From: Candidatus Nanoarchaeia archaeon
GTDB taxonomy: Archaea; Nanobdellota; Nanobdellia; UBA10117
Assembly (NCBI GenBank): GCA_038851215.1
Contig: JAWCLD010000002.1
Coordinates: forward strand, 1-41,124
Direction of reading: 5' to 3'
DNA length: 41,124 nt
Every line of letters begins with the position of its first letter. Position 1 is the stretch's first letter. Below are positions 187 through 32,027 of this stretch, piece after piece. Below the pieces are notes generated by a model. The model was not told the origin of the DNA. It made no database searches and saw only the letters and a program-made list of their open reading frames with translations. The position numbers were made by a program, and so were the translations under genes.

Positions 187-2463
187 ATGCCTGAAGTAGG
201 AGAATACCAAATTATCAGAGAAGGCTCTGAAAAAGTACTTCGCATCAATTATGAAGGCTCTAGTTTTACACCTTCTATTGAAGATGACAAAGTTATAATG
301 TCAAGGGTTTTTGATATTCTGCTAGAAGTTGGCAAAGTTTCAAAAATTATCTTCCTACAAAGAGAAGAATACGAATATGACTGGGCGCAAGTCCGTCTTT
401 TGCTGGAACTTGTTGATGCGTATACCAAATTGGTTAAAGAAGAAAACATACTAAACTTTGGTGCTCTAGGTCTTGCGCCGGAATGCCAGCGTTTCTTACC
501 GGGTTGGTACGATTTTCTTCGCAGCACAATTTTACATCAATTGAAGGAGGACCCGATTGGAGCTTTTGTTGAGCTTGTAAGAAGGCATAGAGAGGAAGTG
601 ATAAAACAAGCACATCCCCCAGCGCCAGGCTATGAAACTTGTGTAGCACCTTTTGTTAATATTTTACAACATGCAATTGATGTGCTTGGAAATACAACAC
701 TCCTAAAGTTAGTTGCTGGAAAGTTACCGGGCTTCAAGCCTGGCGACAGAACTTTATATAGAGAGCATTTTAGACCTTCTATAAGACCACATTTTATGTA
801 TACAAAGCTTGTCACAGCTTTCCCACCTGGTGCGGAGGAGCTTGCAAGCTACAAGATTGCAGAGGGAACTGAAGTTTTGATACTAAAAGTGCCTCAAGAT
901 ATTAGGCCTCTATATCATATAATTCCACCAGAATTCCGTCTCACTGAAGATAGGTATGCGTTGTTAACAGAGGCGAGAGAAATAATGGCAGAACACAGGC
1001 CGCAAAGATCAGAGTTCATAGACCCTGCAAGGACAAGAGAAATATTTTTGTCTGTTGAAAGAGACTTGCTGGCAGACCTTGCGAGAAGCAAAGGTGTGAA
1101 GCTAAGTTACAGCGAACTTGAGGAATTAGCAAAAATACTTCTCCGCTATACAATAGGTTTTGGTCTTATAGAAGTTGTTTTATCAGACCCGAATATACAA
1201 GATGTCGTTGTTAACGCCCCGCTAGGAACACAACCGATATCACTAATACATGCAGATTTCGGTGAATGTCGCACTAATATCACACCGCTGCCAAAAGAAG
1301 GAGATTCGTGGGCAACAAAGCTTCGTTTAATTTCGGGAAGGCCTTTTGACGAGGCAAACCCCATTCTCGATTCTGATTTGCTTTTACCGCATGCACGGGC
1401 AAGAGTTGCCGCCTTACAAGCCCCACTATCACCACTTGGCTATGCATTTGCTTTTAGAAGGCATAGAGATAAGAGTTGGACATTGCCGCTATTTATAAAG
1501 GCAGGTATGCTGACACCATTAGCAGCAGGTTTGATTTCTTTTTTAGTGGACGGAGCACGGACTATACTCATTGCTGGCACAAGGAGTGCAGGCAAAACAT
1601 CGCTATTAGGCGCGTTGATGGTAGAAATTCCAAGAATTAATAGAATTCTTTCAGTCGAGGATACGTTAGAGCTTCCAATTTCTCAGCTAAGAGGGCTCAA
1701 TTATGACATTTTATCAATGAAAACACGCTCTGTTATAACAGGTGCGGAGGCCGAAGTTCCGGCAGAGCAGGCAATCAGAACCGCTTTACGATTAGGAGAT
1801 TCTGCATTAATAATTGGCGAGGTTAGAAGCTTAGAAGCAAGAGCACTTTATGAAGCAATGAGGATTGGCGCACTTGCAAAAGTTGTTGCAGGCACTATTC
1901 ATGGCGCATCGCCTTACGATGTCTACGACCGTGTTGTAAATGATTTAGGTGTGCCAAAAACAAGCTTCAAAGCAACCGATATTATCATGGTGGCAAATAC
2001 AGTCACATCACCATCCGGTCTTGAGAGGTGGAGACGGCTAACCCAGATTTCTGAGGTCAGAAAGCTATGGACTGAAGACCCAATAATAGAAAAGGGATTT
2101 GCAGATTTAATGGTGTATAATGCGGCCAAGGATATAATAGAACCAACAGATATTTTAATTGAAGGCGAATCCGAAACATTAAAGGCTGTTGGAGGCCGTG
2201 TGCGAGAGTGGGCTGGCAATTGGGACGCAATTTGGCAAAATATAGAGTTAAGGGCAAAGATAAAGCAAGCTATTGTCGATGCAGCAAACAAAACAAAAAT
2301 ACAAGATTTGCTTGAAGCACCATTCGTCGTTGCGTCAAACGACGAATTTCACAGATTGTGTGCAATAATTGCAGAGGAAGTTGGCTTCACAGATCCTAAG
2401 AGGGTTTATGCTGAATGGAGCAATTGGCTAAAACAAAGGATAAAAAAGATGAAAGGAAGCTAA
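187..2463 (+). CDS. type IV filament / secretion ATPase (GspE-PilB-FlaI-VirB11 superfamily)
   Basis: 758-aa ORF. Walker A GTRSAGKTS, Asp-box-like SVEDTLEL, Walker B region ALIIGEVRSLEA and His-box-like AGTIHGASP occur in the canonical order for this superfamily. The ~330-aa N-terminal region and ~100-aa C-terminal tail have no motif I recognise. Confidence 0.85.
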   Translation: MPEVGEYQIIREGSEKVLRINYEGSSFTPSIEDDKVIMSRVFDILLEVGKVSKIIFLQREEYEYDWAQVRLLLELVDAYTKLVKEENILNFGALGLAPECQRFLPGWYDFLRSTILHQLKEDPIGAFVELVRRHREEVIKQAHPPAPGYETCVAPFVNILQHAIDVLGNTTLLKLVAGKLPGFKPGDRTLYREHFRPSIRPHFMYTKLVTAFPPGAEELASYKIAEGTEVLILKVPQDIRPLYHIIPPEFRLTEDRYALLTEAREIMAEHRPQRSEFIDPARTREIFLSVERDLLADLARSKGVKLSYSELEELAKILLRYTIGFGLIEVVLSDPNIQDVVVNAPLGTQPISLIHADFGECRTNITPLPKEGDSWATKLRLISGRPFDEANPILDSDLLLPHARARVAALQAPLSPLGYAFAFRRHRDKSWTLPLFIKAGMLTPLAAGLISFLVDGARTILIAGTRSAGKTSLLGALMVEIPRINRILSVEDTLELPISQLRGLNYDILSMKTRSVITGAEAEVPAEQAIRTALRLGDSALIIGEVRSLEARALYEAMRIGALAKVVAGTIHGASPYDVYDRVVNDLGVPKTSFKATDIIMVANTVTSPSGLERWRRLTQISEVRKLWTEDPIIEKGFADLMVYNAAKDIIEPTDILIEGESETLKAVGGRVREWAGNWDAIWQNIELRAKIKQAIVDAANKTKIQDLLEAPFVVASNDEFHRLCAIIAEEVGFTDPKRVYAEWSNWLKQRIKKMKGS

Positions 2464-2469
2464 GAGACA

Positions 2470-4524
2470 ATGCCAGAATTCGATGAAACAACAAGAAGAA
2501 TAATTTATGCAAAGTATCGAAAAAAGATAGAAGAGGAAGTTGGTCAGTCCCCTGACATCAAAGCCGAGCCCGAAGCATCATACTCCGAAGCGTATCAAAT
2601 ATTTAGAAAAGAGCAACTTAGCTTAGGGCACACACTTTTTGAAAGGCTTTGTAATGGGGCTGAAAGAGTATTGCAATTAAAATTAAAGCAAGCTGATATA
2701 GAAAAAATTCTGCCAGCGCTCGAGATGGCGCATATTGCAACAACGCCGCAGGGCGTCTACGCCCTAGCTGTCCTAACAACAATCGCAAGCTTCATTACAA
2801 GTTTTGCAATTGGATTAGTGCTTGGTAGCATTTGGATAATACTTCTGGGTTCACTTGTCGCAGCCGGTCTATTCTTCTACATCCCAACATTGCCAAAAAA
2901 AATGTTTTTAGCCTGGCGTGCAAAGGCTTCGGATCAAATTATTCTTGCGGTACTTTATATGATAATCTATATGGAACACACTCCTAATTTGGAGTTAGCA
3001 ACTTGGTTTGCAGCAAAGCACCTTCCTCCTCCTTTGTCATTGGATTTTATTAAAGTTCTATGGGATGTCGAAACAAAAAAATATAGTTCCTTGATTGCAG
3101 CATTGGAAGATTACATTGAAAGTTGGCGGGGCTGGGATGATGCCTTTATAGATTCGATACATATTTTACAAACATCTCTGGCTGTGGAAGCGAAGTCTGA
3201 AAGATTAAAGATTTTAGAAAAGGCTGAAGAAGTAATTCTCGAAGGCACATACGATAAGATGTTAGCTTTTGCACACAACTTGCAAGGCCCTGCACAGACG
3301 CTGCACATGCTTGGTACTGTACTGCCAATAATGGGTCTTGTTATGCTTCCAATGGTTTCTGCCTTTATGGGCGCAACAATAAAATGGTGGTACTTAGTAA
3401 TTTTATATAACATTTTACTGCCAATAGCTGTCTATGGAATTGCAAAATCAATACTTACAGTACGGCCAGCAGGCGCGAATCCTACAGATGTTTATTTACA
3501 TTTAGCAGAGAAGTATGCTAAGCCTACAATTTCTCCTTTAATAATAGGTATTGCAATCTTCGCAGCAATTTCAGCTCCAGCATTTTTTTATTTCACAGTT
3601 AATTTCCCGACAGGCGCGGCAGCTTTTAGTCTGTTGCCCCTATTGTTTTCAACCTTATTCGTTGCGGCCGCAGGCATTAGCATTAGTGCTTACTATTGGT
3701 ACAAATCTAACGCACTGATGAAGATAAAGAAAAAAATCTTACAAATAGAAGATCAGTTTGCAGCAGCAATTTTCCAGCTCGGAAATAAAGTTGCTGAGGG
3801 TGTGCCAGTCGAAGCTGCAATAACTTATGTTGTAGAGGCAATGCCAAAAGCTGAAGTTGCAGATTTCTTTAGAATTATAGATAGAAACATGAGAGAATTA
3901 GGTATGAACTTAAAAGATGCAATTTTCGACGAAAGGAAAGGCGCGCTTGCTGCTTATCCATCAGCAATAATCAAATCCGTTATGCAAACCACTGTAGAAG
4001 CTGCGAAGAAATCGCCTGAAGTTGCAGCTTCTTCGCTAATAACAATTTCAAGATATTTGACGAATGCGCATCGCGTAAATGAAAGACTGAAGGATTTGTT
4101 AGCAGATACTATCAGTTCATTGTCGATGCAAACTAAACTCTTTGCACCTGTAATATCTGGCATTGTTGTAGGTCTCTCATCATTGACCACAGCGATATTG
4201 TTCAATCTCGGAGAAAAGTTAAAGGGCTTTGAGGTTAGTGGCGAAATGCCTGGCTTTGGCGCAGGCTTGCTACAAATCTTTCAAATAGAACATATGTTGC
4301 CTGCTTGGCAATTCCAGTTCATAGTTGGTATTTATTTGTTACAGCTCGTTGCACTGACAGCAATTTTATTGAATGGAATTATAAACGGGCCTGACAAACT
4401 AGAACAAGAAGATATGATGGCAAAAAGCATGCTTTATGCGACCGTATTTTACGCTAGCCTTACCGCATTAGCTTCATTGTTATTCCTCAACTTAGTTAGC
4501 GGAATAGTGGAGGTAATTGTTTAA
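2470..4524 (+). CDS. polytopic membrane platform protein (FlaJ/TadC/PilC-like, two T2SSF-like halves)
   Basis: 684-aa ORF starting 7 nt after the ATPase stop. It has at least 8 hydrophobic segments in two blocks, each preceded by a soluble helical domain (e.g. IEDQFAAAIFQLGNKVAEGVPVEAAITYVVEAMP...NLKDAIFD). This is the layout of archaeal FlaJ/TadC platforms. Confidence 0.75.
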   Translation: MPEFDETTRRIIYAKYRKKIEEEVGQSPDIKAEPEASYSEAYQIFRKEQLSLGHTLFERLCNGAERVLQLKLKQADIEKILPALEMAHIATTPQGVYALAVLTTIASFITSFAIGLVLGSIWIILLGSLVAAGLFFYIPTLPKKMFLAWRAKASDQIILAVLYMIIYMEHTPNLELATWFAAKHLPPPLSLDFIKVLWDVETKKYSSLIAALEDYIESWRGWDDAFIDSIHILQTSLAVEAKSERLKILEKAEEVILEGTYDKMLAFAHNLQGPAQTLHMLGTVLPIMGLVMLPMVSAFMGATIKWWYLVILYNILLPIAVYGIAKSILTVRPAGANPTDVYLHLAEKYAKPTISPLIIGIAIFAAISAPAFFYFTVNFPTGAAAFSLLPLLFSTLFVAAAGISISAYYWYKSNALMKIKKKILQIEDQFAAAIFQLGNKVAEGVPVEAAITYVVEAMPKAEVADFFRIIDRNMRELGMNLKDAIFDERKGALAAYPSAIIKSVMQTTVEAAKKSPEVAASSLITISRYLTNAHRVNERLKDLLADTISSLSMQTKLFAPVISGIVVGLSSLTTAILFNLGEKLKGFEVSGEMPGFGAGLLQIFQIEHMLPAWQFQFIVGIYLLQLVALTAILLNGIINGPDKLEQEDMMAKSMLYATVFYASLTALASLLFLNLVSGIVEVIV

Positions 4525-4619
4525 TGGAGTGGGCAGAGTTCGTACTACTTCTAGGCTCTGTTCTTGCAATTGCTATAATAATATATATAATACTTACAGC
4601 ACTAGGTATAATACACTAA
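4524..4619 (+). CDS. possible 31-aa single-TM micro-protein, translationally coupled to the platform gene
   Basis: Not in the ORF track because it is under 60 aa. The ATG shares the last A of the platform stop (tAATGg). GGAGGT at 4509-4514 sits 9 nt upstream. Translation is MEWAEFVLLLGSVLAIAIIIYIILTALGIIH. The N-terminus resembles that of the next gene (MAEWTLEEILLLL). Confidence 0.3.
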   Translation: MEWAEFVLLLGSVLAIAIIIYIILTALGIIH

Positions 4620-4646
4620 AAGTGCGTTATAGCGAGCAAATGCGAA

Positions 4647-5165
4647 ATGGCTGAATGGACATTAGAGGAAATCTTGCTTCTGTTAATTGCCATATTTGGA
4701 TTTATATTGCTAGCGATAATATTAGGGTTCTTTAAATTTGGTAAGGAACTTTGGTATACTGATTGCCGTAATGTGCCAGAAGGACCGCGCTGCTTCCAGC
4801 TAGGCGAAACTGTTAGTTGCATAGCTGCAGAGAATATTTCAAAAGATGTTAACATACCTCTCGCTGGCTATTACAACCCCCTATGTAGTATCTATAGCGA
4901 TAGTGAGTATAAATGTATTTACGCTTTTCCTAATCTTACCAAAAATGAACAGGCATTTCAAGTTTGTAAATTCATACCAGCCTCTTATGTAGTAGAGGCA
5001 CCTGCTGGTAAAAAAGCTGGGAAAGATAGTCTTTGCCTATTAAACGCACAAATTGATTGTGCAGATCTATCACAAAAAACATCACCAAAATGTCAAGAGG
5101 TATTAGGTTGCAAGCCCGTCAATGCAATCGAAGCCGCTTTTGAGCGGTTAAAGCCACCATCATAA
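4647..5165 (+). CDS. N-terminally anchored, Cys-rich extracellular protein (pilus-locus component)
   Basis: 172 aa with the hydrophobic helix EEILLLLIAIFGFILLAIILGFF at the N-terminus, then a soluble part with 10 Cys and NxS/T sequons (NIS, NLT). No [KR]G cleavage site is seen. Confidence 0.6.
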   Translation: MAEWTLEEILLLLIAIFGFILLAIILGFFKFGKELWYTDCRNVPEGPRCFQLGETVSCIAAENISKDVNIPLAGYYNPLCSIYSDSEYKCIYAFPNLTKNEQAFQVCKFIPASYVVEAPAGKKAGKDSLCLLNAQIDCADLSQKTSPKCQEVLGCKPVNAIEAAFERLKPPS

Positions 5166-5190
5166 AATACAATGCAATTTGTTATGTAAA

Positions 5191-6177
5191 ATGGATAAAA
5201 AAGGGAAGTTAGTAGCAGAGACGCTTCCAATTATTGCGATTACTATACTTGGAGGTATAATAATTATAAGTTTCATTCTCATCTTTGCAGGCTATATTAA
5301 GCCAGAGCTTGGGAGCTTTGGCTGCAGCCTTAACATAAGGATTTATTCTGCAATGTTAGGCGGCTCTGGCGGTCTTTTATCAACACCAATATTTATGTGC
5401 AATCAGTACAGAGAGCCAATTGAAATAAATGCAGGGAAATGGTCTGATTGTCCTGGCATAGCAGATTTCTGTAAGAAAGAGACTTCCAAAGAAGTATTGG
5501 CGCAATGCTATCGACAATGCGCAAGAATACAAATTGATAAATTAACAGAGTCTTGTTGGTCGATGGGCGGTTCTGGCACGCTCTCTTTATGGTCAGCATG
5601 GGACAGAATAGGTGCTTTTACTTATAATGTTGGAAAATTTTTAGATGCAACAGTAAAGGCTATTGAGCTAGAAGCGGCATACGGTGCGAATTATTTCCTC
5701 TTAGGTTTGCCAGAGCTAACCGGTATTACTAATATAAAGGAACTTAATTATAAAATCTTGAGCGATACCCGCCAAATGGAAGCTAAGAAAAGTGCAATTC
5801 TTCGCTGCTATAAATTTCAAATTGTGAATCCTGGCAGGCTGCCAGTGCCTCCAGAACAAAATTTCTTTTACGATTGGAGTTATGGACGTAGTTGGTCTTA
5901 CAACTTAAATGCTACAAATCCTGAACTTTGCAGAAAATATGCAACAGCAGAAGATAAAATTTGTAGCTATGGTGGTGACGGTGTAAGCTACTTAAACCAA
6001 AATATAACTTCAATTAATGATTTAGAGGCTGACATGAGTCTATATTTAAATTATATAGCAGAACCTCGCCAAGTTTGCTACATAGCTTATTATCAGGAGG
6101 AAGGGGGTAGAAATTATGTAATAAGAAGCTGTGAGCACTGGTCAGTATATGGCGGCGGTAGCTTTTTCTTGAACTAA
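5191..6177 (+). CDS. prepilin-like (class III signal) Cys-rich secreted protein
   Basis: I chose the ATG at 5191 over the TTG at 5179 in the track. N-terminus is MDKKG|KLVAETLPIIAITILGGIIIISFILIF. The mature part of about 300 aa has at least 12 Cys. Confidence 0.65.
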   Translation: MDKKGKLVAETLPIIAITILGGIIIISFILIFAGYIKPELGSFGCSLNIRIYSAMLGGSGGLLSTPIFMCNQYREPIEINAGKWSDCPGIADFCKKETSKEVLAQCYRQCARIQIDKLTESCWSMGGSGTLSLWSAWDRIGAFTYNVGKFLDATVKAIELEAAYGANYFLLGLPELTGITNIKELNYKILSDTRQMEAKKSAILRCYKFQIVNPGRLPVPPEQNFFYDWSYGRSWSYNLNATNPELCRKYATAEDKICSYGGDGVSYLNQNITSINDLEADMSLYLNYIAEPRQVCYIAYYQEEGGRNYVIRSCEHWSVYGGGSFFLN

Positions 6178-6214
6178 GTTAGATGTTCTTCGCGCAATAC
6201 AGCTTATAAATTGT

Positions 6215-6373
6215 TTAAGGTTTTGTTTGGTTAAGCAATGCGATAAGCTTTGCACTGACTTCGCTGAAGCCGCCTCTAAAAATCCACAGCACTAAAATTA
6301 TGCCAATTACACCAAGAGCTATCATAATTATATAAGACAACCCAATTTCTATTCCTTTTTTATTGCTTTTCAT
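6215..6373 (-). CDS. 52-aa mini-pilin (class III signal plus one hydrophobic helix plus a short tail)
   Basis: Internal ATG of the track ORF 6215..6406. Translation is MKSNKKG|IEIGLSYIIMIALGVIGIILVLWIFRGGFSEVSAKLIALLNQTKP. Confidence 0.6.
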   Translation of the reverse strand: MKSNKKGIEIGLSYIIMIALGVIGIILVLWIFRGGFSEVSAKLIALLNQTKP

Positions 6374-6374
6374 T

Positions 6375-6533
6375 CTATTTAAACAGGTCGGAAAGTTTTT
6401 TTCCAATATCTATTGCTGTCTGTTCGCCACCACTTTTTATATTATAATAAAGTGCGATAATAAGTATCGTAACGACAAGGGCGACGAGCGTAGCAGCGAG
6501 AAAGTGCCACCATTCAGCGCCTTTTGCAGCCAT
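6375..6533 (-). CDS. second 52-aa mini-pilin, absent from the ORF track
   Basis: Hand-translated from the minus strand: MAAKG|AEWWHFLAATLVALVVTILIIALYYNIKSGGEQTAIDIGKKLSDLFK. The stop (6375-6377) lies 1 nt before the start of the downstream mini-pilin (6373). On the minus strand a GAGG lies just upstream of the ATG, and a TATA-like tttatta sits about 19-25 nt upstream. Confidence 0.5.
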   Translation of the reverse strand: MAAKGAEWWHFLAATLVALVVTILIIALYYNIKSGGEQTAIDIGKKLSDLFK

Positions 6534-6762
6534 GCCTCTAATACAAAACAGTGGTTAATAAATTTAGCTAGCAACGCTCTAATCATTACAAATTGGATTC
6601 CGTGCAATGCAATGAATTAGCCTTTTAACTTGCTTTAAGATTTATTGCCGCTTGAATGGAAAGGCTGCTGTGAAAGAGTGTCTCGCATTTGAAGAGTTGC
6701 CAACGATTAGAGAAAGCCAAATTCGACAAAAAGAATTTTAAATTATAATTTTCTTATTAAAA
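6534..6762. promoter_or_regulatory. divergent intergenic region between the minus-strand mini-pilins and the plus-strand 829-aa gene
   Basis: 229-bp non-coding gap, the largest in the pilus locus. A TATA-like tttaaattataa (~6737-6748) lies ~15-25 nt upstream of the ATG at 6763. A TATA-like element for the minus-strand pair lies at ~6553-6560. Confidence 0.3.
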
Positions 6763-15260: not shown

Positions 15261-16063
15261 TGCTTAAAAGTCGAGGGTCAGCAGATTTGTTGTTGGAAAT
15301 AGTAATAAGTACTATAATATTTTTTATTGTCGTTATTGTTCTCTTCGGGATAAGGCTTCCACAGCTTGAGTATCGAGCCCACGCAACAGTCTACTCTGTA
15401 GATTCAGCATTAGTTTGCAGCACCACACTGACAAATTTGCTGCGGACTGAAGAAAATGGCATACCAATATCAGAATTTTTATCTAGAGGCAGCTATGATG
15501 ATTTCAATAAGACTGTAACAAAACTTCTTGACAGCGTATTTACTGAAAGTGGTGGGTGGGATCTTGCCATTGTATTACCAAATGGAACTTCAATCTTAAA
15601 CATTCCGAAGTTAAAAGCTACTAGCTATGCCCCTTGTAAGGCTTTCGTACCTTTTAACACTACATATACGCAAACAAGCTGTTTGTGGTCTAAAACTTTG
15701 CATGACATACAGCATAACAACGATATAAGTTTCGAATCGCCGGACGGTAAAATAGTTTGCACTATTATAAACGATGGTACGCAGTTTGGCGTAAGAACCG
15801 GCAGCAAAGATTGCCCACTTGACTTAAAGCCAAAAACTCTATTTGAAGAGAGTCTCCCCGCAACTATAGAGGATAGCACAGACTGTGTCAATGCTAAAAA
15901 CTGCTTAGACACAATATCTTTGCCATTAAACATAAAAGGTATACAATATGAGCTAACGCTTACAGAAACAAGCGAAGAAAAGGCCGACGTGACTCTTGCT
16001 AGAGCGCCACTGATCGATAATTGCGGCTTAACCGTTATGTTAAAAATAGGAGGTCTTCAATGA
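15257..16063 (+). CDS. prepilin-like protein, 268 aa
   Basis: ATGA overlap with the previous gene. N-terminus MMLKSRG|SADLLLEIVISTIIFFIVVIVLFG. Confidence 0.6.
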   Translation: MMLKSRGSADLLLEIVISTIIFFIVVIVLFGIRLPQLEYRAHATVYSVDSALVCSTTLTNLLRTEENGIPISEFLSRGSYDDFNKTVTKLLDSVFTESGGWDLAIVLPNGTSILNIPKLKATSYAPCKAFVPFNTTYTQTSCLWSKTLHDIQHNNDISFESPDGKIVCTIINDGTQFGVRTGSKDCPLDLKPKTLFEESLPATIEDSTDCVNAKNCLDTISLPLNIKGIQYELTLTETSEEKADVTLARAPLIDNCGLTVMLKIGGLQ

Positions 16064-16833
16064 TGTCACAAAAAGGACAACTATTAGCTTTTCTCGCACT
16101 AGGAATTACGCTGGCGCTAATATTCATTAGTTTTACGTACACTAGAGAGGTATATAATTTTTCAATGTTTATCGGAAATGAAAGTGCCCATCTCATAAAC
16201 GGCTATGCCGAAACGGAAAGCGCTAAGCTTTATTTAAAAAATGCATTAAGACAAGCAGCTTACGAAGCAATTTACCAACAAACATTGGATAAAAGTTGTA
16301 ATTTTACAAAAGCTTGTAGCGATAAAGAACAACTAAAAAACTTAACAAGAGGATATTTTGAAGACTATCTTTCGATGTATATATCGAGCACCGAGCTTTT
16401 AGAGGTAACACTTCCAAATTATTTACTTGAGTTAGAAACTTGCAACAATAAAACAATAATGTTTGAAGCATTCGGCTTTTCTCAAGGTTGCATATTGAGG
16501 TCTGATTGGGCGTGGCCAGAATTGCCTTGCGAGGACCAAAATATAACTTCTTGCAATACAATAAAGTTTACAAATGGAAGGGCAAATGCCTGTGTTTGGA
16601 ACGCTACTACTAAGCTTTGTGAGGACTCAAAGCCAGCACCAGACTGCGAATCTATTACAAAAGCAGAGGATTGCAACGGTGACTGCAAATGGCAAACTTC
16701 TTACAACGAGCAAATTCATGTTTATTCACCATCAGGCTTAGCTAATTATCAGTTTGATGTCGCATCAGATGCACACTTCATTACAACAATTAATTGTGCG
16801 CAGTACGAAGCTTTTGCTGCGAAGAGAGTGTGA
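16060..16833 (+). CDS. prepilin-like Cys-rich protein, 257 aa
   Basis: ATG at 16060 is preceded by TAGGAGG (16047-16053) and overlaps the previous stop. N-terminus MMSQKG|QLLAFLALGITLALIFISF. Cys-rich C-terminal half (CEDQNITSCNT...CVWNATTKLCEDSKPAPDCESITKAEDCNGDCKW). Confidence 0.65.
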   Translation: MMSQKGQLLAFLALGITLALIFISFTYTREVYNFSMFIGNESAHLINGYAETESAKLYLKNALRQAAYEAIYQQTLDKSCNFTKACSDKEQLKNLTRGYFEDYLSMYISSTELLEVTLPNYLLELETCNNKTIMFEAFGFSQGCILRSDWAWPELPCEDQNITSCNTIKFTNGRANACVWNATTKLCEDSKPAPDCESITKAEDCNGDCKWQTSYNEQIHVYSPSGLANYQFDVASDAHFITTINCAQYEAFAAKRV

Positions 16834-16882
16834 TTAAGCACACTACGTTAAAGTTATAAGTAGCTATCTCTTTTCATTCAAA

Positions 16883-18817
16883 ATGGCTACTAAAAAAGGC
16901 TCCGCCGCTTTAACAATAATTATAATAATGGCAGTATTACTTACAATTTTTCTAATCTTTACAGGATTCGTTCGAGGAGGTTTCATGCAAGAACGCGCAC
17001 TTATCCATGAGAGCATTAAAAAGACCGGAGAAGTGCCTTGCCTTAAGGCGCCCGAGGTTAGCTTGCCGGCAATTATTTTAATCAATCCACAACAATTTCC
17101 AAGCGATGTGTTAGTGCCGATAAAAGCCACAATAAACTCAAATTGCTTCGAAAACCTTAGCATAACTTGGAATTTTGACGGCTCTCCTTTTATAGAAAGT
17201 GAATGTGCATATCCTTATACTATGGAGAATTGCTCCTTTGTCAACTATACCTTTTCCAACATCAATATTAAAGATATTTGGACTTCTCATGATATTTCTA
17301 TAGATGTATTTGGCTTGCGCTCGGGTTTTTATGCTTCCGCAGCAAGTGTTGGCTTCGTTACAGACCCGAATTTTAAATTTATGAACACGGTGATTAATAG
17401 TAATAATTTTGCTTGCATGAAGCTCGATTATACACTCAACTGGACAAAGCCGGCAGCTCCAACAATCGAATTTGAAATTAAAGATAATGGAAGGCAAAAA
17501 GTTGCAGAGAGTAGCCAAATTGCGCCTTCAAAGTCAGGCACAATTATATATCGTGCTATACCAACTGGGACACTTGATAAGAAACACAATCTTGAGTTAT
17601 CTGCAACAGTGGGCTGGCAGACAGTTAGGGCGCAGGAAGTATATAATGAACCGTCGCGCCTAATTTCAAAAGAAGATATTATAGCATTTGGCAATCCGGG
17701 TAATGTTACAATTTTTACACAAAGCTTCGACCCAAAGCAATTCAAAGCAGGAGGCTATTTCCCAGACACCACTTTAATGGATACAGATATCGCAGCTGGA
17801 GACCTGAATAACGACGGAGTTGAGGATGAGTTTGCATTTCTGCTGACTGAGGGCGGTAAGGCCGAACTTTTCATACTGTCTTACCAAAAGCTCCTGTCAG
17901 ACTTACAGCCTAACTTGGAAAAGTTTGACATAGATAGACTTAAGCAGATTTGGCCGCACTATACTTTAGACGAATTAAAAAAAATATATGAAAGTGATTT
18001 CAATAGCCCAGGCTGGAAAGCAGTGGCCGCTGGCAAAAGCGTCAAGAGCTCTGATAAAAGCAAAACAGGCAACTTAATTGTATTAGGAAACCCTGGTGAT
18101 TTAGATTTGTATAGATATCGCAGTGGATTTATCGAACAAGTAGAGAGAGGCACAGACTTTAAGGATTTTATACACCATGGTACCGGCTGGGATGCAGCTC
18201 TTAGTGATTGGCAAGACATCGCAACAGCAGACTTTGACAGAGACGGAGAAGATGAAATAATTGCTCTTCGCTCCTATTACTATACTGATGGAGTTGAATA
18301 TTCAACTCATGATTTATATGTCTTCAAGTACGGGGATTACAAAAATGTTGATAACAAAGCTCCTTATTGGCATAATTTGCCTGAAATCAAAATAAACGGC
18401 AATCCTTGGTTTGCTGTTGCAGCAGGAAATATGGACAAAACAGAATATGGAGGATATGATCCTTTAGAAATTGTAGTGTTGGGAGGAAGCAATAAGGTTG
18501 GAGACCTTTACAAAGTGCAATATTTTCCTGTCGAGAATCCTAAAGAAAATCCTTTTAGCTTACCATTACACAAACGAGATTGGCCAGATGGACCAATCTG
18601 GCTGGATGTCACGACAGTGGACTTTAATGGCGACGGCCTCGATGAGTTGGCCTTCCTCTATAAATATAATAATGATTATTATGTTTCAATCATTAATTAT
18701 ACTAATGCTCTTAAAGTTACAGATTTCGATAGCTTTACAAGACTTTCAATGAATACCGCAAAATTGGGAAAAGCCGATTGGAATTCAATTTCAGCAGGAG
18801 ATTTCACATGCCTCTAA
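16883..18817 (+). CDS. 644-aa prepilin-like protein fused to FG-GAP/VCBS-like (integrin-alpha-type beta-propeller) repeats; candidate adhesin
   Basis: N-terminus MATKKG|SAALTIIIIMAVLLTIFLIF. The C-terminal half carries repeated Ca-binding-type loops: AAGDLNNDGVEDEFAFL, ATADFDRDGEDEIIAL, TTVDFNGDGLDELAFL and the terminal ISAGDF. Confidence 0.7.
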   Translation: MATKKGSAALTIIIIMAVLLTIFLIFTGFVRGGFMQERALIHESIKKTGEVPCLKAPEVSLPAIILINPQQFPSDVLVPIKATINSNCFENLSITWNFDGSPFIESECAYPYTMENCSFVNYTFSNINIKDIWTSHDISIDVFGLRSGFYASAASVGFVTDPNFKFMNTVINSNNFACMKLDYTLNWTKPAAPTIEFEIKDNGRQKVAESSQIAPSKSGTIIYRAIPTGTLDKKHNLELSATVGWQTVRAQEVYNEPSRLISKEDIIAFGNPGNVTIFTQSFDPKQFKAGGYFPDTTLMDTDIAAGDLNNDGVEDEFAFLLTEGGKAELFILSYQKLLSDLQPNLEKFDIDRLKQIWPHYTLDELKKIYESDFNSPGWKAVAAGKSVKSSDKSKTGNLIVLGNPGDLDLYRYRSGFIEQVERGTDFKDFIHHGTGWDAALSDWQDIATADFDRDGEDEIIALRSYYYTDGVEYSTHDLYVFKYGDYKNVDNKAPYWHNLPEIKINGNPWFAVAAGNMDKTEYGGYDPLEIVVLGGSNKVGDLYKVQYFPVENPKENPFSLPLHKRDWPDGPIWLDVTTVDFNGDGLDELAFLYKYNNDYYVSIINYTNALKVTDFDSFTRLSMNTAKLGKADWNSISAGDFTCL

Positions 18818-18969
18818 AATCAAAAAGCAAAGGCTTCGAGACAATTTGGTGGACTTTAATTATCTTTGTACTTGTTATTGTGATATTTTTGCTTTTCTTT
18901 TTCTTCTTTCGTTCAGGCTTTATACATATAGAAACAAGCACCTTTAACATATTTAAGGCGGTACCTTAA
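18808..18969 (+). CDS. 53-aa mini-pilin
   Basis: MPLKSKSKG|FETIWWTLIIFVLVIVIFLLFFFFF plus a short tail. The ATG at 18808 overlaps the stop of the FG-GAP gene (18815-18817). Confidence 0.5.
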   Translation: MPLKSKSKGFETIWWTLIIFVLVIVIFLLFFFFFRSGFIHIETSTFNIFKAVP

Positions 18970-18973
18970 TACC

Positions 18974-19846
18974 ATGAAACGCGGACAAGGACAAGAAAAA
19001 CCTATAAGCTTGTTAGGGGTTAGCTTGCCGTTACTTATAATTTTTTTTATAATTGTGGCGTTTATTTTTATTCCAGATCTTGGCCAAAAAATAGTTGAAA
19101 TTTTTAATGTAAAAGTTCTAGCGCCTATTGGCATATCACCAATATCAATACCTGAGTTTGGCAAACCTGTAGCGGAGAAAGTTGGTCTTAATGCAACAAT
19201 TACCATTGTACCCGACTTACCAGCTTGCACCTTCGAAAAGCTCTTCTTTTCAGCGCTAAATTCGCACCTGCCGACAGGAATAGAGTGGGGCTCTGTAAGT
19301 TGCATTTGGGACTTCGATATAAGCAAAGATACTAGTAACGATGGTATCGCGGATAACGATATTGATTCGAGCCAATGCGAAGTAGCAACAGAAAATGCGA
19401 CAATAAAATCCTCGCAAACAGTTAAACTCATATTAAAAACGCAGCAAGGAGTAACGGATAGTGCAGAATCAACAATCACCACAACTTTGTTATGCGACAA
19501 GGCACAGCTGCAAAACAAAGTTGTTCCAAGTGGCGATGTGACCAGTTTAATATTAGGCAAGAACTGGACTGTTCAAAGCTTACATATTAAAATAAGACCT
19601 GAAGCTGTAGATAATATTACAAACATAACAATAAATGTTATAGGTAGTTCGGCAGCTGTAGATTACTCTTTCGAAGGTATAATTTATGATGAGTTCTTAA
19701 TTTATGATCAAAACCTTGAGGCTGCTATAAACTCTGTGCTCGAGAAATGTAAAGCAACCACTTGCAGCGTTAATTTGATATGGTCATTTGGCTCTGGTAG
19801 CGCAAGAATAATTGATGTGCACATTCCTTACACTGTAAACTTATAA
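18974..19846 (+). CDS. prepilin-like secreted protein, 290 aa, last gene of the locus
   Basis: N-terminus MKRGQG|QEKPISLLGVSLPLLIIFFIIVAFIFI. It has an Asp-rich loop DTSNDGIADNDIDSSQC and many NxS/T sequons. Confidence 0.6.
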   Translation: MKRGQGQEKPISLLGVSLPLLIIFFIIVAFIFIPDLGQKIVEIFNVKVLAPIGISPISIPEFGKPVAEKVGLNATITIVPDLPACTFEKLFFSALNSHLPTGIEWGSVSCIWDFDISKDTSNDGIADNDIDSSQCEVATENATIKSSQTVKLILKTQQGVTDSAESTITTTLLCDKAQLQNKVVPSGDVTSLILGKNWTVQSLHIKIRPEAVDNITNITINVIGSSAAVDYSFEGIIYDEFLIYDQNLEAAINSVLEKCKATTCSVNLIWSFGSGSARIIDVHIPYTVNL

Positions 19847-19872: not shown

Positions 19873-20127
19873 TTAAAAAAATGTCTTTAAGATAAAGAAA
19901 CCAATCAGGAAGCCCAATAGCGTGCCAATTAGACTTCCATGTATAAAATCAACAATTTCTTCTCTCGCTTTAATAGAAAAGCAAAAAGGTAATTTCGTAC
20001 GGGGATCGTGCAAGCTATGTGATCTAGCCAATGCCTTGAACTTCTCTAAAAACCTTAGTATGGCCATAAATACATTTTTATAAACTGATATCTTATAAAG
20101 TTTAGCAATGTCGTTAGCTGCCATCAA
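19873..20127 (-). CDS. hypothetical small protein with a C-terminal TM helix
   Basis: 84-aa ORF ending SLIGTLLGFLIGFFILKTFF. Its first 20 nt overlap the divergent 20108 gene, so the internal Met at 20067 (MAILRF...) may be the true start. Confidence 0.35.
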   Translation of the reverse strand: MMAANDIAKLYKISVYKNVFMAILRFLEKFKALARSHSLHDPRTKLPFCFSIKAREEIVDFIHGSLIGTLLGFLIGFFILKTFF

Positions 20128-20800
20128 AAGGCCCTTTTCGGCTAGGGTTTTGCCAGGCTTGTTGCTAGTCTTATTCCCAATAATTGAATTCTTTGCTATG
20201 GGTTACAAGCTAGTCTGCGCCAGAACTGCAATGTCATTCGATTATAAACTGCCGCCTTGGAAAGCGTGGAAAGAACTTTTTGTTTTTGGTGCTGTAGCTA
20301 GAGTAATTCAAGCTCTTTGGCTAACACCAGCGATCGTCACGCTAATAGTTCTTTGGTTAAAACTTAAGAGCTTTAATGCTGCAGCGCTTCAAAGCACAAC
20401 TACAACGATATTACAACAATTCCTCGCAATTAGAAACCTCTTTGCAATTTTAATAGCACTACTAATTATAGCTGCAATTTTCGCCCCAGCATCCATACTG
20501 AACTATGTCACAGAAGGTCATTTCAGCGCAGCTTTTTCTTTTTCGATGTTAAAGAGAATGTTTAGTTTTAGGTATCTTATCGGCTTGTTAGTAGCAGGCG
20601 CTTATGTAATTTTTGTGCTAGGATTATCCTTTAGCCTTTTCTATTTCGTAGGACGAGCCCTCCAGGCCCAAAGTCCTTTTCTAATCGCAACTTTCGTATT
20701 GCCTGTAGAAGCTATTTTGCTATGGTTGCCTTTCGTAACGATTTGGACCTTATTGGGGGAAGCATGGGGCAAAGTACTACAAAAAGAATATGTTGTATAA
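20108..20800 (+). CDS. polytopic membrane protein, DUF4013-like
   Basis: 230 aa with about 6 TM segments. The N-terminal pattern FPIIEFFAMGYKLVCARTAM..YKLPPWKAWKELFVFG resembles my recollection of the archaeal DUF4013 family (P...GY...R....LP.F.DW..L...G). Confidence 0.4.
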   Translation: MSLAAIKRPFSARVLPGLLLVLFPIIEFFAMGYKLVCARTAMSFDYKLPPWKAWKELFVFGAVARVIQALWLTPAIVTLIVLWLKLKSFNAAALQSTTTTILQQFLAIRNLFAILIALLIIAAIFAPASILNYVTEGHFSAAFSFSMLKRMFSFRYLIGLLVAGAYVIFVLGLSFSLFYFVGRALQAQSPFLIATFVLPVEAILLWLPFVTIWTLLGEAWGKVLQKEYVV

Positions 20801-28554: not shown

Positions 28555-29715
28555 ATGGCCACAGAGATGCAAGGTCAAATAGGACCATTCATAATATTAT
28601 TAGTGTTATTAGGCGGGATTATATTTTATGTAATTTCTATAAATCCTGTCGAGCGAGAAGCTATTATAGGACCAATTCTTTATGAAAGATACGTGTTAGA
28701 TACACAACCCGGTTTAGTAGAGGCCACGCCTTTAACAACATATAAAGTGAGTAAGGACTTAGGTATTTCTTATCTCGATTATAGTCCTATACCAACACCA
28801 AAAATACTTTCGGAACAAATTTCTATTAAGCGCTCGGCAACAACAAATACGCAAACAGCATTTCCTGTAAATATCAACAAACAAGAGTTAACCGCAGCAA
28901 GTCTTGATTTTAACATAGCAAGCAAGCTTGGTAATGCGGGTTTGACAGTAACACTAAATGGAATAGTTGTCTTTACAGGCAACCTTGAGCCGGGGCGACA
29001 ATCTATAGACTTGCCACTTGATGTATTACAGCAAGGCCCAAATGAAATTATAATTTCAGTTGCACCACCAGGCATTGCATTTTGGCGCTCTACAACCTAT
29101 GTCTTAACAGATGTTGAGTTTGTATCAAAGAATTACATGCCAGAAAGAGCAGTATCTGAGCAAATTGTCACGCTGACACCACAAGAATTGACTGGTTTGA
29201 TATCTGCGCGCCTTGATGCTTATGCAAAACAGCTAAGTGCAAAGCCTGCAACAATAACATTGAAATTTAATGACAAGCAACTTTATTCTGCGATACCAAC
29301 AGATGAAAGATTAAGAATAGATTTGCCACCAGTTCTAGTACAAACAACAAACAAACTGAATTGGGCTGTTGCCCGTGATGGCAAATATGATATAATATTC
29401 GGCAAGTTAACAATTACATACGCTAAAGCGCCATATAAAGTTAAGAGCTGGACTTTTGCAATTACGGACTTTGAAATTTCAGCGAGTAAAACTGGGCAAA
29501 TCAATTGCCTGCTGCAAGTTACTGCAGCAACTGATGTCACAAAGTTACTTACATTTCAGATAAACGCGCAAACAGTTTCTATAGAAATGAAAGATGGTAA
29601 AATTGAAGAGAATATTTGTAGATATCTACAGCCAGGCGATAATTACCTTGCTGTTTATTCGCCTTCAGACATCAAGCTTGACAAGCTGAGCATTCTGATA
29701 AAAGGAAAGGCTTAG
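28555..29715 (+). CDS. N-terminally anchored secreted protein (first gene of a four-gene envelope module)
   Basis: 386 aa with the N-terminus MATEMQGQIGPFIILLVLLGGIIFYVI (QG followed by a hydrophobic helix, possibly prepilin-like), then a beta-rich sequence. Confidence 0.55.
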   Translation: MATEMQGQIGPFIILLVLLGGIIFYVISINPVEREAIIGPILYERYVLDTQPGLVEATPLTTYKVSKDLGISYLDYSPIPTPKILSEQISIKRSATTNTQTAFPVNINKQELTAASLDFNIASKLGNAGLTVTLNGIVVFTGNLEPGRQSIDLPLDVLQQGPNEIIISVAPPGIAFWRSTTYVLTDVEFVSKNYMPERAVSEQIVTLTPQELTGLISARLDAYAKQLSAKPATITLKFNDKQLYSAIPTDERLRIDLPPVLVQTTNKLNWAVARDGKYDIIFGKLTITYAKAPYKVKSWTFAITDFEISASKTGQINCLLQVTAATDVTKLLTFQINAQTVSIEMKDGKIEENICRYLQPGDNYLAVYSPSDIKLDKLSILIKGKA

Positions 29716-29716
29716 A

Positions 29717-31048
29717 ATGGATTCTAAACAACATACTGAAGAAGAAGTAGAGGAGCCTGAATATCAATCAGGCAGGTCCCCGTGGGCTGCTATCCTCTTT
29801 ATAATCTTAACCTTTTTTGTATTTCTCCTAAATCTGCTTGGCATATCACCACTTTGGTTTACTATGACTTTATTTTTCTTTTTCGCATTAGGTGCCGCGA
29901 TTTCCCTCTGGCTCGGAGGTCGCAAAGGTAAGGCAGTAATCATTTTCATAATCATGTTTTTCGGCTTTGGCTTTGCTTCTTGGTGGATGGTCGAAACACC
30001 TCTTGGAAAGCAGTTGGTTGGTAAGCTTGGTATCGGTGGCGTCCAACTTATGGAAGGTTTGCGTGGCCTTACAGGTCCAATTAATATTATGATGCAAATT
30101 TTCAAAGGAACATATAATCCTGAAAATCTCTGGCAATCAAATGTTGTTGAGTCGCAATATGAAGTGGCAAAGGACGTTGGCGTTACTTTAGTCGATGTTA
30201 AAGCGTTACGCGAAATTTTTGAAGTAAGCCAAGAACTTGTAATTACTGGTAGGATAAACGCAGTGGGCTTTCCTGGCACAGAGGTTACAGCAGCATTAGG
30301 AGCTTGCGAGTTTGACATCACTAGAAGAGAATGCAAAAGCAACAGTTGGAATTGCATACCTTCAGAACTTAAGGTGCGAGAGGCAAGGAATAGAGTTTTT
30401 ACATGTAAGCACCCCCCTATTGGAAAAGAGGCTACCCCTTATACAGTAAATATCGAAGCTAAGGCAGAAGATACGATACTTATAGCAGGTAAACAATTCG
30501 TATTTGCCTCTACAGACGCACTACTCGCAGTAGAGCCAGGCATAAGTCCGTTGGATGCATTTGGCGTTCCTGCAAATAGCTTGAAAAGTTGGCAGAAAGG
30601 CGACAGCTCTGTAAATTTAGGAATAGATATTTCCGGCAGACCAGAAGTTCTTGAAACAGATGTTGAATATTTTCTCGGTGTTAGCGTAGAAAATCCTGTT
30701 TCGCATACAGGAACTGCTTTTATTAAAGAAGTAGAGTTTTTTATACCTGCAGCAAGGCCAAATCTTGGCGCGAAAAGCGCAGATAAAGATTTCATTTGCA
30801 ACCAACCTATAACACAAGAGGATATTGCTACACTGAAATTACCACAAGGAGTTGTGCTTAACAAGTGTGTTGCGAGGCTTAACAAGCAACTAAAGCCAGG
30901 AGATTTCTTAAATTCTTATATCAAAATCAAAATTGCAGAAGATGAGTTGGTGGGGCAAGATTTTAGCACCTTCTTCGTCCTTGCAAGGTTAAAATATGAT
31001 TACTCAAACAGCAAACTTATCCCGCTCACAGTGAAAGAATTAACATAA
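29717..31048 (+). CDS. membrane protein with ~3 N-terminal TM segments and a large extracellular domain
   Basis: 443 aa, starting 2 nt after the previous stop. Its C-terminal strand ARLKYDYSNSKLIPLTV resembles the C-termini of the next two proteins. Confidence 0.55.
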   Translation: MDSKQHTEEEVEEPEYQSGRSPWAAILFIILTFFVFLLNLLGISPLWFTMTLFFFFALGAAISLWLGGRKGKAVIIFIIMFFGFGFASWWMVETPLGKQLVGKLGIGGVQLMEGLRGLTGPINIMMQIFKGTYNPENLWQSNVVESQYEVAKDVGVTLVDVKALREIFEVSQELVITGRINAVGFPGTEVTAALGACEFDITRRECKSNSWNCIPSELKVREARNRVFTCKHPPIGKEATPYTVNIEAKAEDTILIAGKQFVFASTDALLAVEPGISPLDAFGVPANSLKSWQKGDSSVNLGIDISGRPEVLETDVEYFLGVSVENPVSHTGTAFIKEVEFFIPAARPNLGAKSADKDFICNQPITQEDIATLKLPQGVVLNKCVARLNKQLKPGDFLNSYIKIKIAEDELVGQDFSTFFVLARLKYDYSNSKLIPLTVKELT

Positions 31049-31049
31049 A

Positions 31050-32027
31050 ATGCAATCTGCAAGAAAGCTAAGCGTTAAGAACTATGAAAAGCCAAGTAAA
31101 GTTAGAAAATTATTTATCACAGAAATTACATCAAAATCTTTAACGTTAATCTTCTTGGTAATGGTAATTGTAGTAAGCGGCTGCATTAGCTTACCGATAT
31201 TCAGTACGCGAGAGATCGAATCAGAGACCTTTATTGGCGGTACTGATGGTCTTGTGCTACGTTTTCTAAGCTTGCCATCGACAGTATTACAAAATCAAAG
31301 TTTTAGCATCGTAGCGCTAGTAGAAAATAAAGGAGAATCTGATATTAACGCAGAAGACGCTTTCTTTACATTAAACAATGCGAATGCATTTAACATTCCT
31401 GATAAAGAGATAACAAAAAGAAATAGTATAAAATTAACTGGCGCCAAGCTAGTTGGAGGTGTTGTGATGCCTGGCGGAAGTGAACAAATTGCATGGGGCC
31501 CAGCCAAAATCACAAGCCTTATTTTGACAGAGCAGCAAATCATTCCACTTAGCATAGATGCTTGTTATCCATACACCACTACAGCAACATCACGCGTGTG
31601 CATTAGCAAAACGCACAAATTATGCGAGCCTGTTGCAGAAAAAATTGTAAAAAATTCGGGTGCGCCAATCCAGCTAACATCACTACGGCAAATTGCACTT
31701 CCAAAAAATAATGATATAGAACTTACCCTCATATTTGAAATAAAAAATGTTGGTGGCGGTGCTGTTTTCGAAGCGGTAGCAAGTTGCCCTAACCCAAATA
31801 TTGCCCAAAAGGATTATGTTAACATAAAGGCAATAAAGCTAGGAGGCAAATCTCTTGATTTGAAAAACTGTTCTGAACTAAGTATGAGCTTGTTTGAAAA
31901 TAAGGGCTCAGCGAGCTGTACCTTCACAATTCCTGCAACAACCGACTATGAAGAGCAACTAACAATAGAGCTAGAATACAAATACAAAAAAGGCTTGTCA
32001 GGGCAGGTGGTTACAGTTCCGATTTGA
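31050..32027 (+). CDS. lipobox-containing surface protein, paralogue 1 (CARDB-like beta-sandwich composition)
   Basis: 325 aa with the signal LIFLVMVIVVSGC|IS. It shares FIGGTDG, VENKGES, MPGGSEQI, NSGAPIQLTSL, EIKNVGGG and YEEQLTIELEYKY with the 32091 gene. Confidence 0.6.
   Translation: MQSARKLSVKNYEKPSKVRKLFITEITSKSLTLIFLVMVIVVSGCISLPIFSTREIESETFIGGTDGLVLRFLSLPSTVLQNQSFSIVALVENKGESDINAEDAFFTLNNANAFNIPDKEITKRNSIKLTGAKLVGGVVMPGGSEQIAWGPAKITSLILTEQQIIPLSIDACYPYTTTATSRVCISKTHKLCEPVAEKIVKNSGAPIQLTSLRQIALPKNNDIELTLIFEIKNVGGGAVFEAVASCPNPNIAQKDYVNIKAIKLGGKSLDLKNCSELSMSLFENKGSASCTFTIPATTDYEEQLTIELEYKYKKGLSGQVVTVPI

Follow-up and report, generated by a model that had tools for sequence, protein, structure and literature searches.

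A probable type IV filament locus with Flp-sized and modular pilin-like proteins in a Nanoarchaeia-type archaeon

The 41,124-nt contig JAWCLD010000002.1 of a Candidatus Nanoarchaeia archaeon (GenBank assembly GCA_038851215.1), analysed here over its entire length and referred to as the window, carries between positions 187 and 19846 the genes for a secretion ATPase and a polytopic platform, followed by 19 further open reading frames (ORFs), nearly all on the same strand. Judged from sequence, we consider it very likely that this locus encodes the assembly system of a type IV filament (TFF; an archaeal type IV pilus, Tad-like) of Woesearchaeota/Nanoarchaeia-type DPANN; the best reading is of a DPANN-typical filament locus with Flp-sized and modular pilins, and not of an archaellum. 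In 15 of the 19 ORFs after the platform, a short basic leader ends in [KR][G/A] immediately ahead of a single strong hydrophobic helix, an arrangement that the same rule finds in 0 of the 29 ORFs elsewhere in the window (Fisher p=3.5e-9).

Working from the ATPase downstream, we see that the platform starts 6 nt past the ATPase stop and that distances between locus genes then range from -16 to +79 nt. The sole exception lies at 6177–6763, an apparent gap of 585 nt in which two mini-pilin genes of 52 aa each (6215–6373 and 6375–6533) lie on the minus strand. ATGA couplings occur at 10330, 15257 and 16060, and overlaps of 1 nt (4524), 16 nt (10139) and 10 nt (18808). This bears out the original prediction, made from the letters of this stretch, of an ATPase and platform heading a near gap-free string, with that one exception; the overlaps it listed (4524, 10139, 10330, 15257, 16060 and 18808) are all present, the one at 16060 also being ATGA. 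As the contig begins 186 nt 5' of the ATPase gene, upstream partners conserved in related loci are cut off here. The features are as follows; in motifs, a slash stands ahead of position +1.

187–2463, plus strand: secretion ATPase of the TadA/FlaI/GspE superfamily, 758 aa, predicted motor (Pfam T2SSE, 1.3e-14)
2470–4524, plus: polytopic membrane platform, FlaJ/TadC/PilC-like, 684 aa (~9 hydrophobic segments, sub-threshold T2SSF)
4524–4619, plus: single-helix micro-protein, 31 aa, probable gene (start overlaps the platform stop by 1 nt)
4647–5165, plus: N-anchored protein, 172 aa, 10 Cys (without KG motif; N-terminus M[AP]EWT conserved)
5191–6177, plus: prepilin-like, 328 aa, 12 Cys (MDKKG and helix)
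6215–6373, minus: mini-pilin, 52 aa, Flp-sized, candidate filament subunit (MKSNKKG/IEIGLSY)
6375–6533, minus: mini-pilin, 52 aa (MAAKG/AEWWHF)
6763–9252, plus: variable surface protein, 829 aa, not a pilin (internal N-proximal anchor, C-terminal anchor and basic tail)
9320–9745, plus: pilin of the [KR][GA]/QGLP family, 141 aa, 6 conserved Cys (family alignment)
9759–10154, plus: paralogous pilin, 131 aa, 8 Cys (MQKG/QGLPIN)
10139–10333, plus: mini-pilin, 64 aa (KGKKG/IQLTMEI)
10330–11307, plus: prepilin-like, 325 aa, ATGA-coupled to the 64-aa mini-pilin gene (MNSKKG/LWGG)
11310–11717, plus: prepilin-like, 135 aa (MKKG/AEPVVG)
11743–12432, plus: N-anchored protein, 229 aa, 14 Cys (K but no G ahead of the helix)
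12512–14728, plus: putatively modular prepilin-like giant, 738 aa (MQSRKA/ISDLVL)
14730–15260, plus: prepilin-like, 176 aa (NKRG/IEQPQV)
15257–16063, plus: prepilin-like, 268 aa, 8 Cys, ATGA-coupled (KSRG/SADLLLE)
16060–16833, plus: prepilin-like, 257 aa, 12 Cys, 7 N-glycosylation sequons (SQKG/QLLAF)
16883–18817, plus: prepilin-like with FG-GAP repeats, 644 aa, candidate adhesin-pilin (MATKKG/SAALT)
18808–18969, plus: mini-pilin, 53 aa (KSKG/FETIWW)
18974–19846, plus: prepilin-like, 290 aa, final gene of the string (MKRG/QGQEKP)
20108–20800, plus: DUF4013 membrane protein, 5 hydrophobic segments, conserved neighbour just beyond the string (Pfam 1.4e-18)

The secretion ATPase and its platform

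The ATPase matches Pfam T2SSE, as anticipated for a PF00437-type motor, and its sequence contains a Walker A (GTRSAGKTS), an Asp box (VEDTLEL), a Walker B (ALIIGEVR) and a His box (GTIHG). Its relatives of solved structure are A. fulgidus GspE (2oap, 2.7e-26), CpaF (7e-22) and FlaI (4e-17), aligned over residues ~211–644 only; the N- and C-terminal extensions align to no solved chain, FlaI included. The best NCBIfam model is that of the TadA family (1.1e-34), yet the score remains far below the model's cut-off. The FlaI equivalog (NF058587) is matched with 108.7 bits against a cut-off of 550—which rejects the ATPase as a member of that equivalog—and the bindosome BasE model with 53 bits against 1000. 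Placement among families rests on these model scores and on PDB matches rather than on phylogeny; judged in this way, the ATPase is a distinct clade of its superfamily, since it falls far below the FlaI, BasE and TadA-family cut-offs.

More than 5000 database proteins match the ATPase family. Near full-length relatives, at 47–84% identity, come from metagenome-assembled genomes (MAGs) of Woesearchaeota, Pacearchaeota, Parvarchaeota and Aenigmatarchaeota, with more distant ones in Nanopusillaceae (~41%) and Altiarchaeota (33–36%); their sources label the homologs Woesearchaeota, Nanoarchaeia, Pacearchaeota or DPANN. Orthologous ATPases of 1092–1979 aa also occur (homologs P0019, P0032, P0047 and P0050; related loci, prefixed L throughout, L040, L042, L043, L047 and L056), and database copies of the long ATPases bear the intein/LAGLIDADG families PF14528 and PF14890; the ATPase gene is therefore a recurrent intein host in the lineage.

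The platform is recognised through its orthologous family, in which 7 of 33 members match T2SSF, the best of them with 29.7 bits (cut-off 25.2). These matches fall in the N-terminal half of the protein in L046 and L052 and in the C-terminal half in the window, L037 and L039, a distribution that fits the two-domain plan of FlaJ/PilC. A search of the PDB with the family profile returned only a weak match to GspF (E=0.39). The locus is placed in the TFF superfamily by an ATPase with Walker A and B, Asp and His boxes, by a platform identified by way of its orthologs and, as judged by sequence pattern, by subunits with a class III-type leader.

The same data speak to the possibility that the locus directs motility, as automatic Woesearchaeota annotations of 'flaI/flaJ/flaK' often imply. 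The JGI names of ATPase homologs do include 'archaellum biosynthesis ATPase' and 'FlaI'; Woesearchaeota genome papers list flaI/flaJ/flaK as motility or adhesion genes (PMC5994134, PMC11606122); and a small coiled-coil protein encoded upstream of the ATPase in L020 matches FlaC below threshold (1.4e-4). Yet Pfam scans of the 20 products yielded no archaellin, FlaF, FlaG or FlaH match at E<=0.1, GspE and CpaF outrank FlaI among the solved relatives of the ATPase, the terminal extensions find no counterpart in FlaI, and the equivalog score (108.7 against 550 bits) is far too low. An archaellum is, on this balance, extremely improbable; the earlier statement that no archaellum genes are recognisable stands, and the 'flagellar' or motility label, routine for such genes in Woesearchaeota MAG studies, is unsupported for this locus.

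N-terminal motifs and the proteins that bear them

Because several N-termini fail the strict FlaFind-style pattern, we used a looser rule, that of [KR][G/A] ahead of a helix, and controlled it against flanking ORFs. Across 57 related loci, fetched via their ATPase and with ORFs called crudely, 98 of the 273 ORFs that lie downstream of the ATPase on its own strand have the motif, as opposed to 20 of 647 others (odds ratio 17.6, p=1.5e-38). The pooled profile has K at -3 (67%), K or R at -2, G (72%) or A (27%) at -1, and Q, I, D or E at +1, behind a leader of median length 6.5 aa; an acidic residue lies within +1 to +5 in 61% of the downstream motif ORFs and in 32% of background hits. Between the window and its relative L059, the motif is in register in 14 of 15 ortholog pairs at overall identities of only 28–71%, as in KKG/IEIGLSY and KKG/DIGYSY, RAQGLPL and KGQGLPL, or KRG/IEQPQV and RKG/VEQPQV; for the 290-aa gene the KG is kept out of register. 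Nearly all of the mid-size and large products combine even Cys counts (4–14) with one N-terminal helix, as would be expected of exported proteins.

Class III processing of the 15 products is, on these grounds, plausible. The original prediction had counted some 18 prepilin-like or N-anchored products with class III signal architecture. The motif is indeed conserved, and enriched downstream of the ATPase, and 15 products bear it; three more (31, 172 and 229 aa) are N-anchored without a KG motif, and the 829-aa protein, which had been included among the giants, is not prepilin-like (see below).

The most compact of the 15 are the four mini-pilins of 52–64 aa, each made up of a brief G-terminated leader, a single hydrophobic helix and a short tail. 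That at 6215–6373 is 61% identical to a 54-aa ortholog in L059 and has family members in 12 loci; its neighbour at 6375–6533 has as its ortholog a 59-aa L059 gene with KKA/VEAWW; that at 10139–10333 is 71% identical to its L059 ortholog, and that at 18808–18969 57% identical to its own. All four predicted mini-pilins are present in the string, two of them, as noted above, on the minus strand. The two paralogous Cys-rich pilins of ~130–140 aa were likewise correctly anticipated: they are of 141 and 131 aa and 42% identical, the latter having an L059 ortholog at 51%. In the alignment of the 141-aa family (21 database relatives), Q7, G8 and L9 are invariant straight after the G/A, as are C58, C62, C81, C104 and C124, with C139 nearly so; in an AlphaFold model (predicted local distance difference test, pLDDT, 85) a small head follows an N-terminal helix of 34 residues. 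The QGLP/mini-pilin superfamily is present in 14 loci.

Amongst the larger products, the 738-aa giant falls into 45 clusters among 1.84 billion representatives in an exhaustive hidden Markov model search (a word-index search gave 8). Most of its invariant columns lie within the first 120 residues; because some distant matches of varying length (462–1003 aa) align best over this ~120-residue N-terminal module, the protein appears to be a modular pilin. Its AlphaFold model is poor (mean pLDDT 47), being confident only at residues ~155–290. The 644-aa protein matches FG-GAP_3 (3.3e-8) and FG-GAP (1e-6), both over threshold, indicating integrin-type propeller repeats that recur in its ortholog (32% identity); as these repeats sit behind a KKG leader, the protein is plausibly an adhesin-pilin. 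Of the three giants once thought prepilin-like (829, 738 and 644 aa), these are the two that remain so.

Among the other products, the 328-aa protein has orthologs in L001 and L059 (35% identity) and a family spread over 11 loci; the 325-aa protein has orthologs in the same two loci (28%), with KKG kept; the L059 ortholog of the 176-aa protein starts MRKG/VEQPQV (40%); and the 135-, 268-, 257- and 290-aa proteins have orthologs at 33, 36, 42 and 30% identity, respectively. Of those without the KG motif, the 172-aa protein has an L059 ortholog at 32% and members in 5 loci, and the 229-aa protein an L059 ortholog at 33%. ORFs of 39–43 aa stand in the place of the 31-aa ORF in L059, L002 and L003, with no sequence similarity detected to its product.

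Several observations weigh against this filament reading. Curated pilin models in Pfam and NCBIfam are passed by none of the products, the sole pilin-model match, and the only return from the expected archaeal pilin profiles, being a sub-threshold one of Pfam Pilin_N to the 135-aa product (0.0061). Several N-termini, judged by eye from their sequences, fail a strict FlaFind-type pattern; tblastn and a motif search found no A24 prepilin peptidase in the 41-kb window; and the model of the 141-aa pilin has no Foldseek match in the PDB at E<=0.001, leaving its head domain unmatched. As for the platform, the anticipated T2SSF match is sub-threshold in the window copy (0.0063), the 29.7-bit score above the cut-off belonging to an ortholog, and an hhalign comparison of its N- and C-terminal halves detected no internal repeat (probability 0.15%).

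Some of these points would suit the view that the products are ordinary uncleaved signal anchors, that is membrane-tethered secreted proteins which merely adjoin an ATPase/platform pair: no curated pilin model passed, the window holds no peptidase, and the 172-, 229- and 31-aa products have no KG motif. Against this, the KG motif and nearby acidic residue are kept while the rest of each protein diverges, and the enrichment over 57 loci is specific to ORFs downstream of this ATPase. Furthermore, in four less closely related Woesearchaeota loci (L020, L023, L056 and L053, the L053 copy truncated) an A24 peptidase closes the pilin string within the same operon: a 277–283-aa membrane protein matching Pfam Peptidase_A24 (2e-11 to 5e-10), with an AGGDAKL aspartyl motif. 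We regard simple anchors as a poor explanation, with little chance of being correct.

A stronger competitor, still unlikely in our judgement, is a surface-display or pseudopilus system, in which the motor builds a short membrane-proximal stub presenting large class III proteins, as proposed for the Sulfolobus bindosome or the pseudopili of bacterial type II secretion systems. Many of the substrates are large (257–738 aa), Cys-rich and provided with distinct domains, 15 different subunits far exceed the needs of a simple fibre, and archaea are reported to have class III signals widely on proteins that form no filament (bioRxiv 10.64898/2026.04.22.720090). Set against this are the four conserved Flp-sized mini-pilins which, being barely more than one helix, better fit the body of a filament, the lack of any match to a substrate-binding-protein family among the products, and the 53 bits scored by the ATPase where the BasE cut-off is 1000.

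Related loci and the variable slot

In L059 and L060, both contigs from other samples, and in the L002 contig, every gene of the locus is present, one-to-one and in the same order: from the platform to a last gene of 290–320 aa, then DUF4013, a small AsnC-like gene, a TGS GTPase and Hjc. The survey of synteny thus finds the whole ~20-kb arrangement kept in close relatives and, since the order is kept in these three contigs, the ORFs of the locus can, on comparative grounds, be taken as real genes. Identity to L059/L060 is 73% for the platform, 66% for the GTPase, 56% for the DUF4013 protein and 28–71% for the pilin-like genes. The ATPase is 79–84% identical to those of related Woesearchaeota contigs (84% in L001) whereas the genes downstream are 28–63% identical to those of L001; the string is therefore conserved in order and fast-evolving in sequence. 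One rearrangement is seen: the mini-pilin pair, on the minus strand in the window, is on the plus strand and after the giant in relatives.

Two side observations concern this arrangement. Relatives have an extra minus-strand gene of 315–334 aa after the 738-aa ortholog, without a Pfam match (L059:10503–11507; 315 aa in the L002 contig), which is absent from the corresponding site in the window (~14728/14730), where the flanking genes are 1 nt apart. Directly after the string, the window, L060 and the L002 contig have the DUF4013 gene, a position taken in more distant loci by the A24 peptidase.

The number of pilin-type genes, flagged as unusual in the original prediction, proves not to be so for the lineage. 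The loci L020, L023, L035, L053 and L056 have 7–10 motif-positive ORFs in the visible 8–10 kb downstream of the ATPase and, because other Woesearchaeota loci carry such a load, 15 motif genes in a 15-kb string are at the high end for the lineage, yet typical of it.

On the other side of the ATPase, related loci supply what the end of the contig removes. Two divergently transcribed coiled-coil proteins lie 5' of the ATPase in 30 of the 38 loci with enough upstream sequence, and 2–3 tandem paralogous four-transmembrane (4-TM) proteins (165–205 aa; 71 members) are also found there in 24 of 38. A short coiled-coil protein is the one with the FlaC match below threshold in L020 (1.4e-4); the 4-TM family has no meaningful match in Pfam, NCBIfam or a PDB profile search. 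Both sets of partners are linked to the ATPase more faithfully than any pilin and, from this linkage, probably belong to the machine.

~0.1–4 kb 5' of the ATPase in loci L001–L057: upstream partner genes, e.g. L002:7087–9401 and L020:7654–9890

The slot that follows the 328-aa gene behaves differently. The 829-aa protein which occupies it in the window has its first hydrophobic segment at residues 68–86, with no start codon just upstream, and ends in a hydrophobic anchor followed by a basic tail; it has no Pfam match. The internal position of the first segment and the C-terminal anchor rule it out as a prepilin and, from this topology, we read it as a C-terminally anchored surface protein. In relatives the slot is filled by unrelated large proteins (582 aa in L059, 948–1090 aa in L001–L003), those of L001 and L002 having a Kelch beta-propeller according to precomputed Pfam annotation; all end alike, with a C-terminal hydrophobic anchor and an RRR/KK tail. 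The slot looks like a swappable surface-protein cassette.

L059:2591–4339, L001:16165–19011, L002:16203–19475 and L003:17570–20728: large-protein slot, counterparts of window 6763–9252

The window has a single perfect inverted repeat of 17 nt, which overlies this region (6641–6657 and 7880–7896) and is rare by chance (seen in 2 of 200 shuffles). One of its arms is inside the 829-aa gene, the other in the divergent promoter region that separates this gene from the mini-pilins. An invertible segment was considered and rejected: when inversion is simulated, the 829-aa gene is cut short and no new signal-bearing ORF arises. No recombinase was among the Pfam matches of the window ORFs, and nothing comparable to the repeat occurs in relatives.

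The remaining 21–41 kb of the window encode Hjc, aRF1, aIF2-alpha, L44e, GINS, PolX and an AMP-phosphorylase-like enzyme by Pfam scans; the window as a whole is of DPANN-type archaeal origin. GC content is even (0.36–0.42) over the locus and its flanks, and nothing suggests a mobile element. Two further features were seen in the flank. At 28555–32993 (plus strand), four successive ORFs of 386, 443, 325 and 300 aa, N-terminally hydrophobic or lipobox-like and without a Pfam match, make up a second set of exported 'dark' proteins; at 36416–37669 (minus strand), a single protein of 417 aa, with matches to the families of both the small and the large primase subunit, suggests a fused PriS-PriL primase.

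Proposed assembly and comparison with known systems

From gene content, motifs, synteny, enrichment and the peptidase of related operons, we infer the following scheme for a type IV filament. A hexamer of the 758-aa ATPase would dock on the 684-aa polytopic platform, whilst the ~15 precursors would enter the membrane via their single N-terminal helix. An A24 prepilin peptidase, encoded elsewhere in the genome, would then trim the basic leader after [KR][G/A], allowing the ATPase and platform to pull the processed subunits from the membrane and to stack them by their N-terminal helices. The filament body would most likely consist of the 52–64-aa mini-pilins and/or the 131/141-aa QGLP pilins, with larger proteins such as the 644-aa FG-GAP protein and the 738-aa giant serving as modular minor or tip pilins with adhesive or other domains; the variable 829-aa protein would be a separate, C-terminally anchored surface protein of the same locus.

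The likeliest role would be attachment, whether to a surface or to the cell of a host or partner; host contact and a T2SS-like multi-subunit tip, both raised in the original prediction, are conjectural. Abundant and for the most part uncultured, DPANN archaea probably live on other cells. As one of few large conserved surface systems in so small a genome, the locus is a concrete candidate for an attachment apparatus. More speculative, and in our view less likely than not, is the joint proposal that Woesearchaeota-type DPANN use it as their machine for contact with host or partner cells and that it is a TFF subtype of its own. Such a subtype would be characterised by lineage-specific extensions at both the N- and the C-terminus of a long ATPase; a platform fused into one protein; conserved partners upstream, both coiled-coil and paralogous 4-TM; a Flp-like mini-pilin fibre presenting fast-diversifying modular adhesin-pilins; and a swappable C-anchored giant setting partner specificity. 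For experiment, the analysis offers a leader motif, K-[KR]-[GA] and then often Q or an acidic residue, together with a candidate peptidase family, candidate major subunits (the 52–64-aa mini-pilins and the QGLP pilins) and candidate adhesins (the FG-GAP protein and the variable giant).

Compared with the archaellum, the ATPase superfamily and platform type are homologous and a class III signal logic is seen in both; the window locus differs in having no archaellin, FlaF, FlaG or FlaH matches. The likeness to bacterial Tad/Flp systems lies in the best NCBIfam model of the ATPase (TadA-family, 1.1e-34), in CpaF being among its best solved relatives (7e-22), and in mini-pilins that share with Flp a G-ended leader, a short tail and, between them, one helix whose first part bears acidic and aromatic residues. 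Saying this, the Flp motif G/XXXXEY is not found in G/IEIGLSY, G/AEWWHF, G/IQLTMEI or G/FETIWW, which have D/E at +1/+2 and Y at +4/+6/+7; the window has one 684-aa platform where Tad has TadB and TadC; it has ~15 pilin-like genes, giants included; and Pfam and NCBIfam scans of the products found no TadZ, TadD/E/F/G or RcpA secretin.

Substrates of EppA are reported to have a mature chain that starts with Q. Several window pilins likewise appear to start their mature chain with Q after [KR][GA] and, as in the Epd-type pili of Methanococcus ('System 1'), many different pilins occur in one system; the window products differ in having no match above threshold to Pfam class III signal or pilin families. 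System 1 (as used in Makarova 2016 and by Sivabalasarma & Albers 2026) has a pair of platform genes beside the ATPase as its defining feature and is reported in some DPANN (bioRxiv 10.64898/2026.04.22.720090), whereas the window and most related loci have a single platform gene. In the text of that 2026 preprint, which classifies archaeal TFF, DPANN come up under three headings only (System 1, Aap-like and 4A), and Woesearchaeota and Pacearchaeota are never named. The bindosome (Bas) differs in its motor, the window ATPase reaching 53 of the 1000 bits of the BasE cut-off, and Pfam scans matched no solute- or substrate-binding family among the products.

By description, the locus also resembles the DPANN 'dark matter' islands of Makarova, Wolf & Koonin 2019, depicted in Fig. 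2A of that paper with a FlaI-like ATPase, a TadC-like protein, surface proteins and unrecognisable signal-peptide proteins, the last proposed to be diverse pilins (PMC6393860). Theirs is a general prediction, given without motif analysis, count, peptidase linkage or experiments. The machine is not new in kind, with more than 5000 ATPase relatives in databases and pilus islands of DPANN already described there: the superfamily is known, the system is common in the lineage and the general prediction is published. What this analysis adds is the leader motif, the number of pilin-like genes, synteny over the full locus, the peptidase inside the operon of relatives and the exclusion of an archaellum.

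For function, the nearest parallel is bacterial. The type IV pili of episymbiotic Saccharibacteria, of the Candidate Phyla Radiation, are T4a-type machines with PilB/PilT, which are not orthologous to the window locus; PMC9894109 and PMC11623550 report that these pili drive host binding. In both cases an ultra-small, host-dependent lineage has conserved type IV pilus genes, and Saccharibacteria thus offer a functional analogy for attachment.

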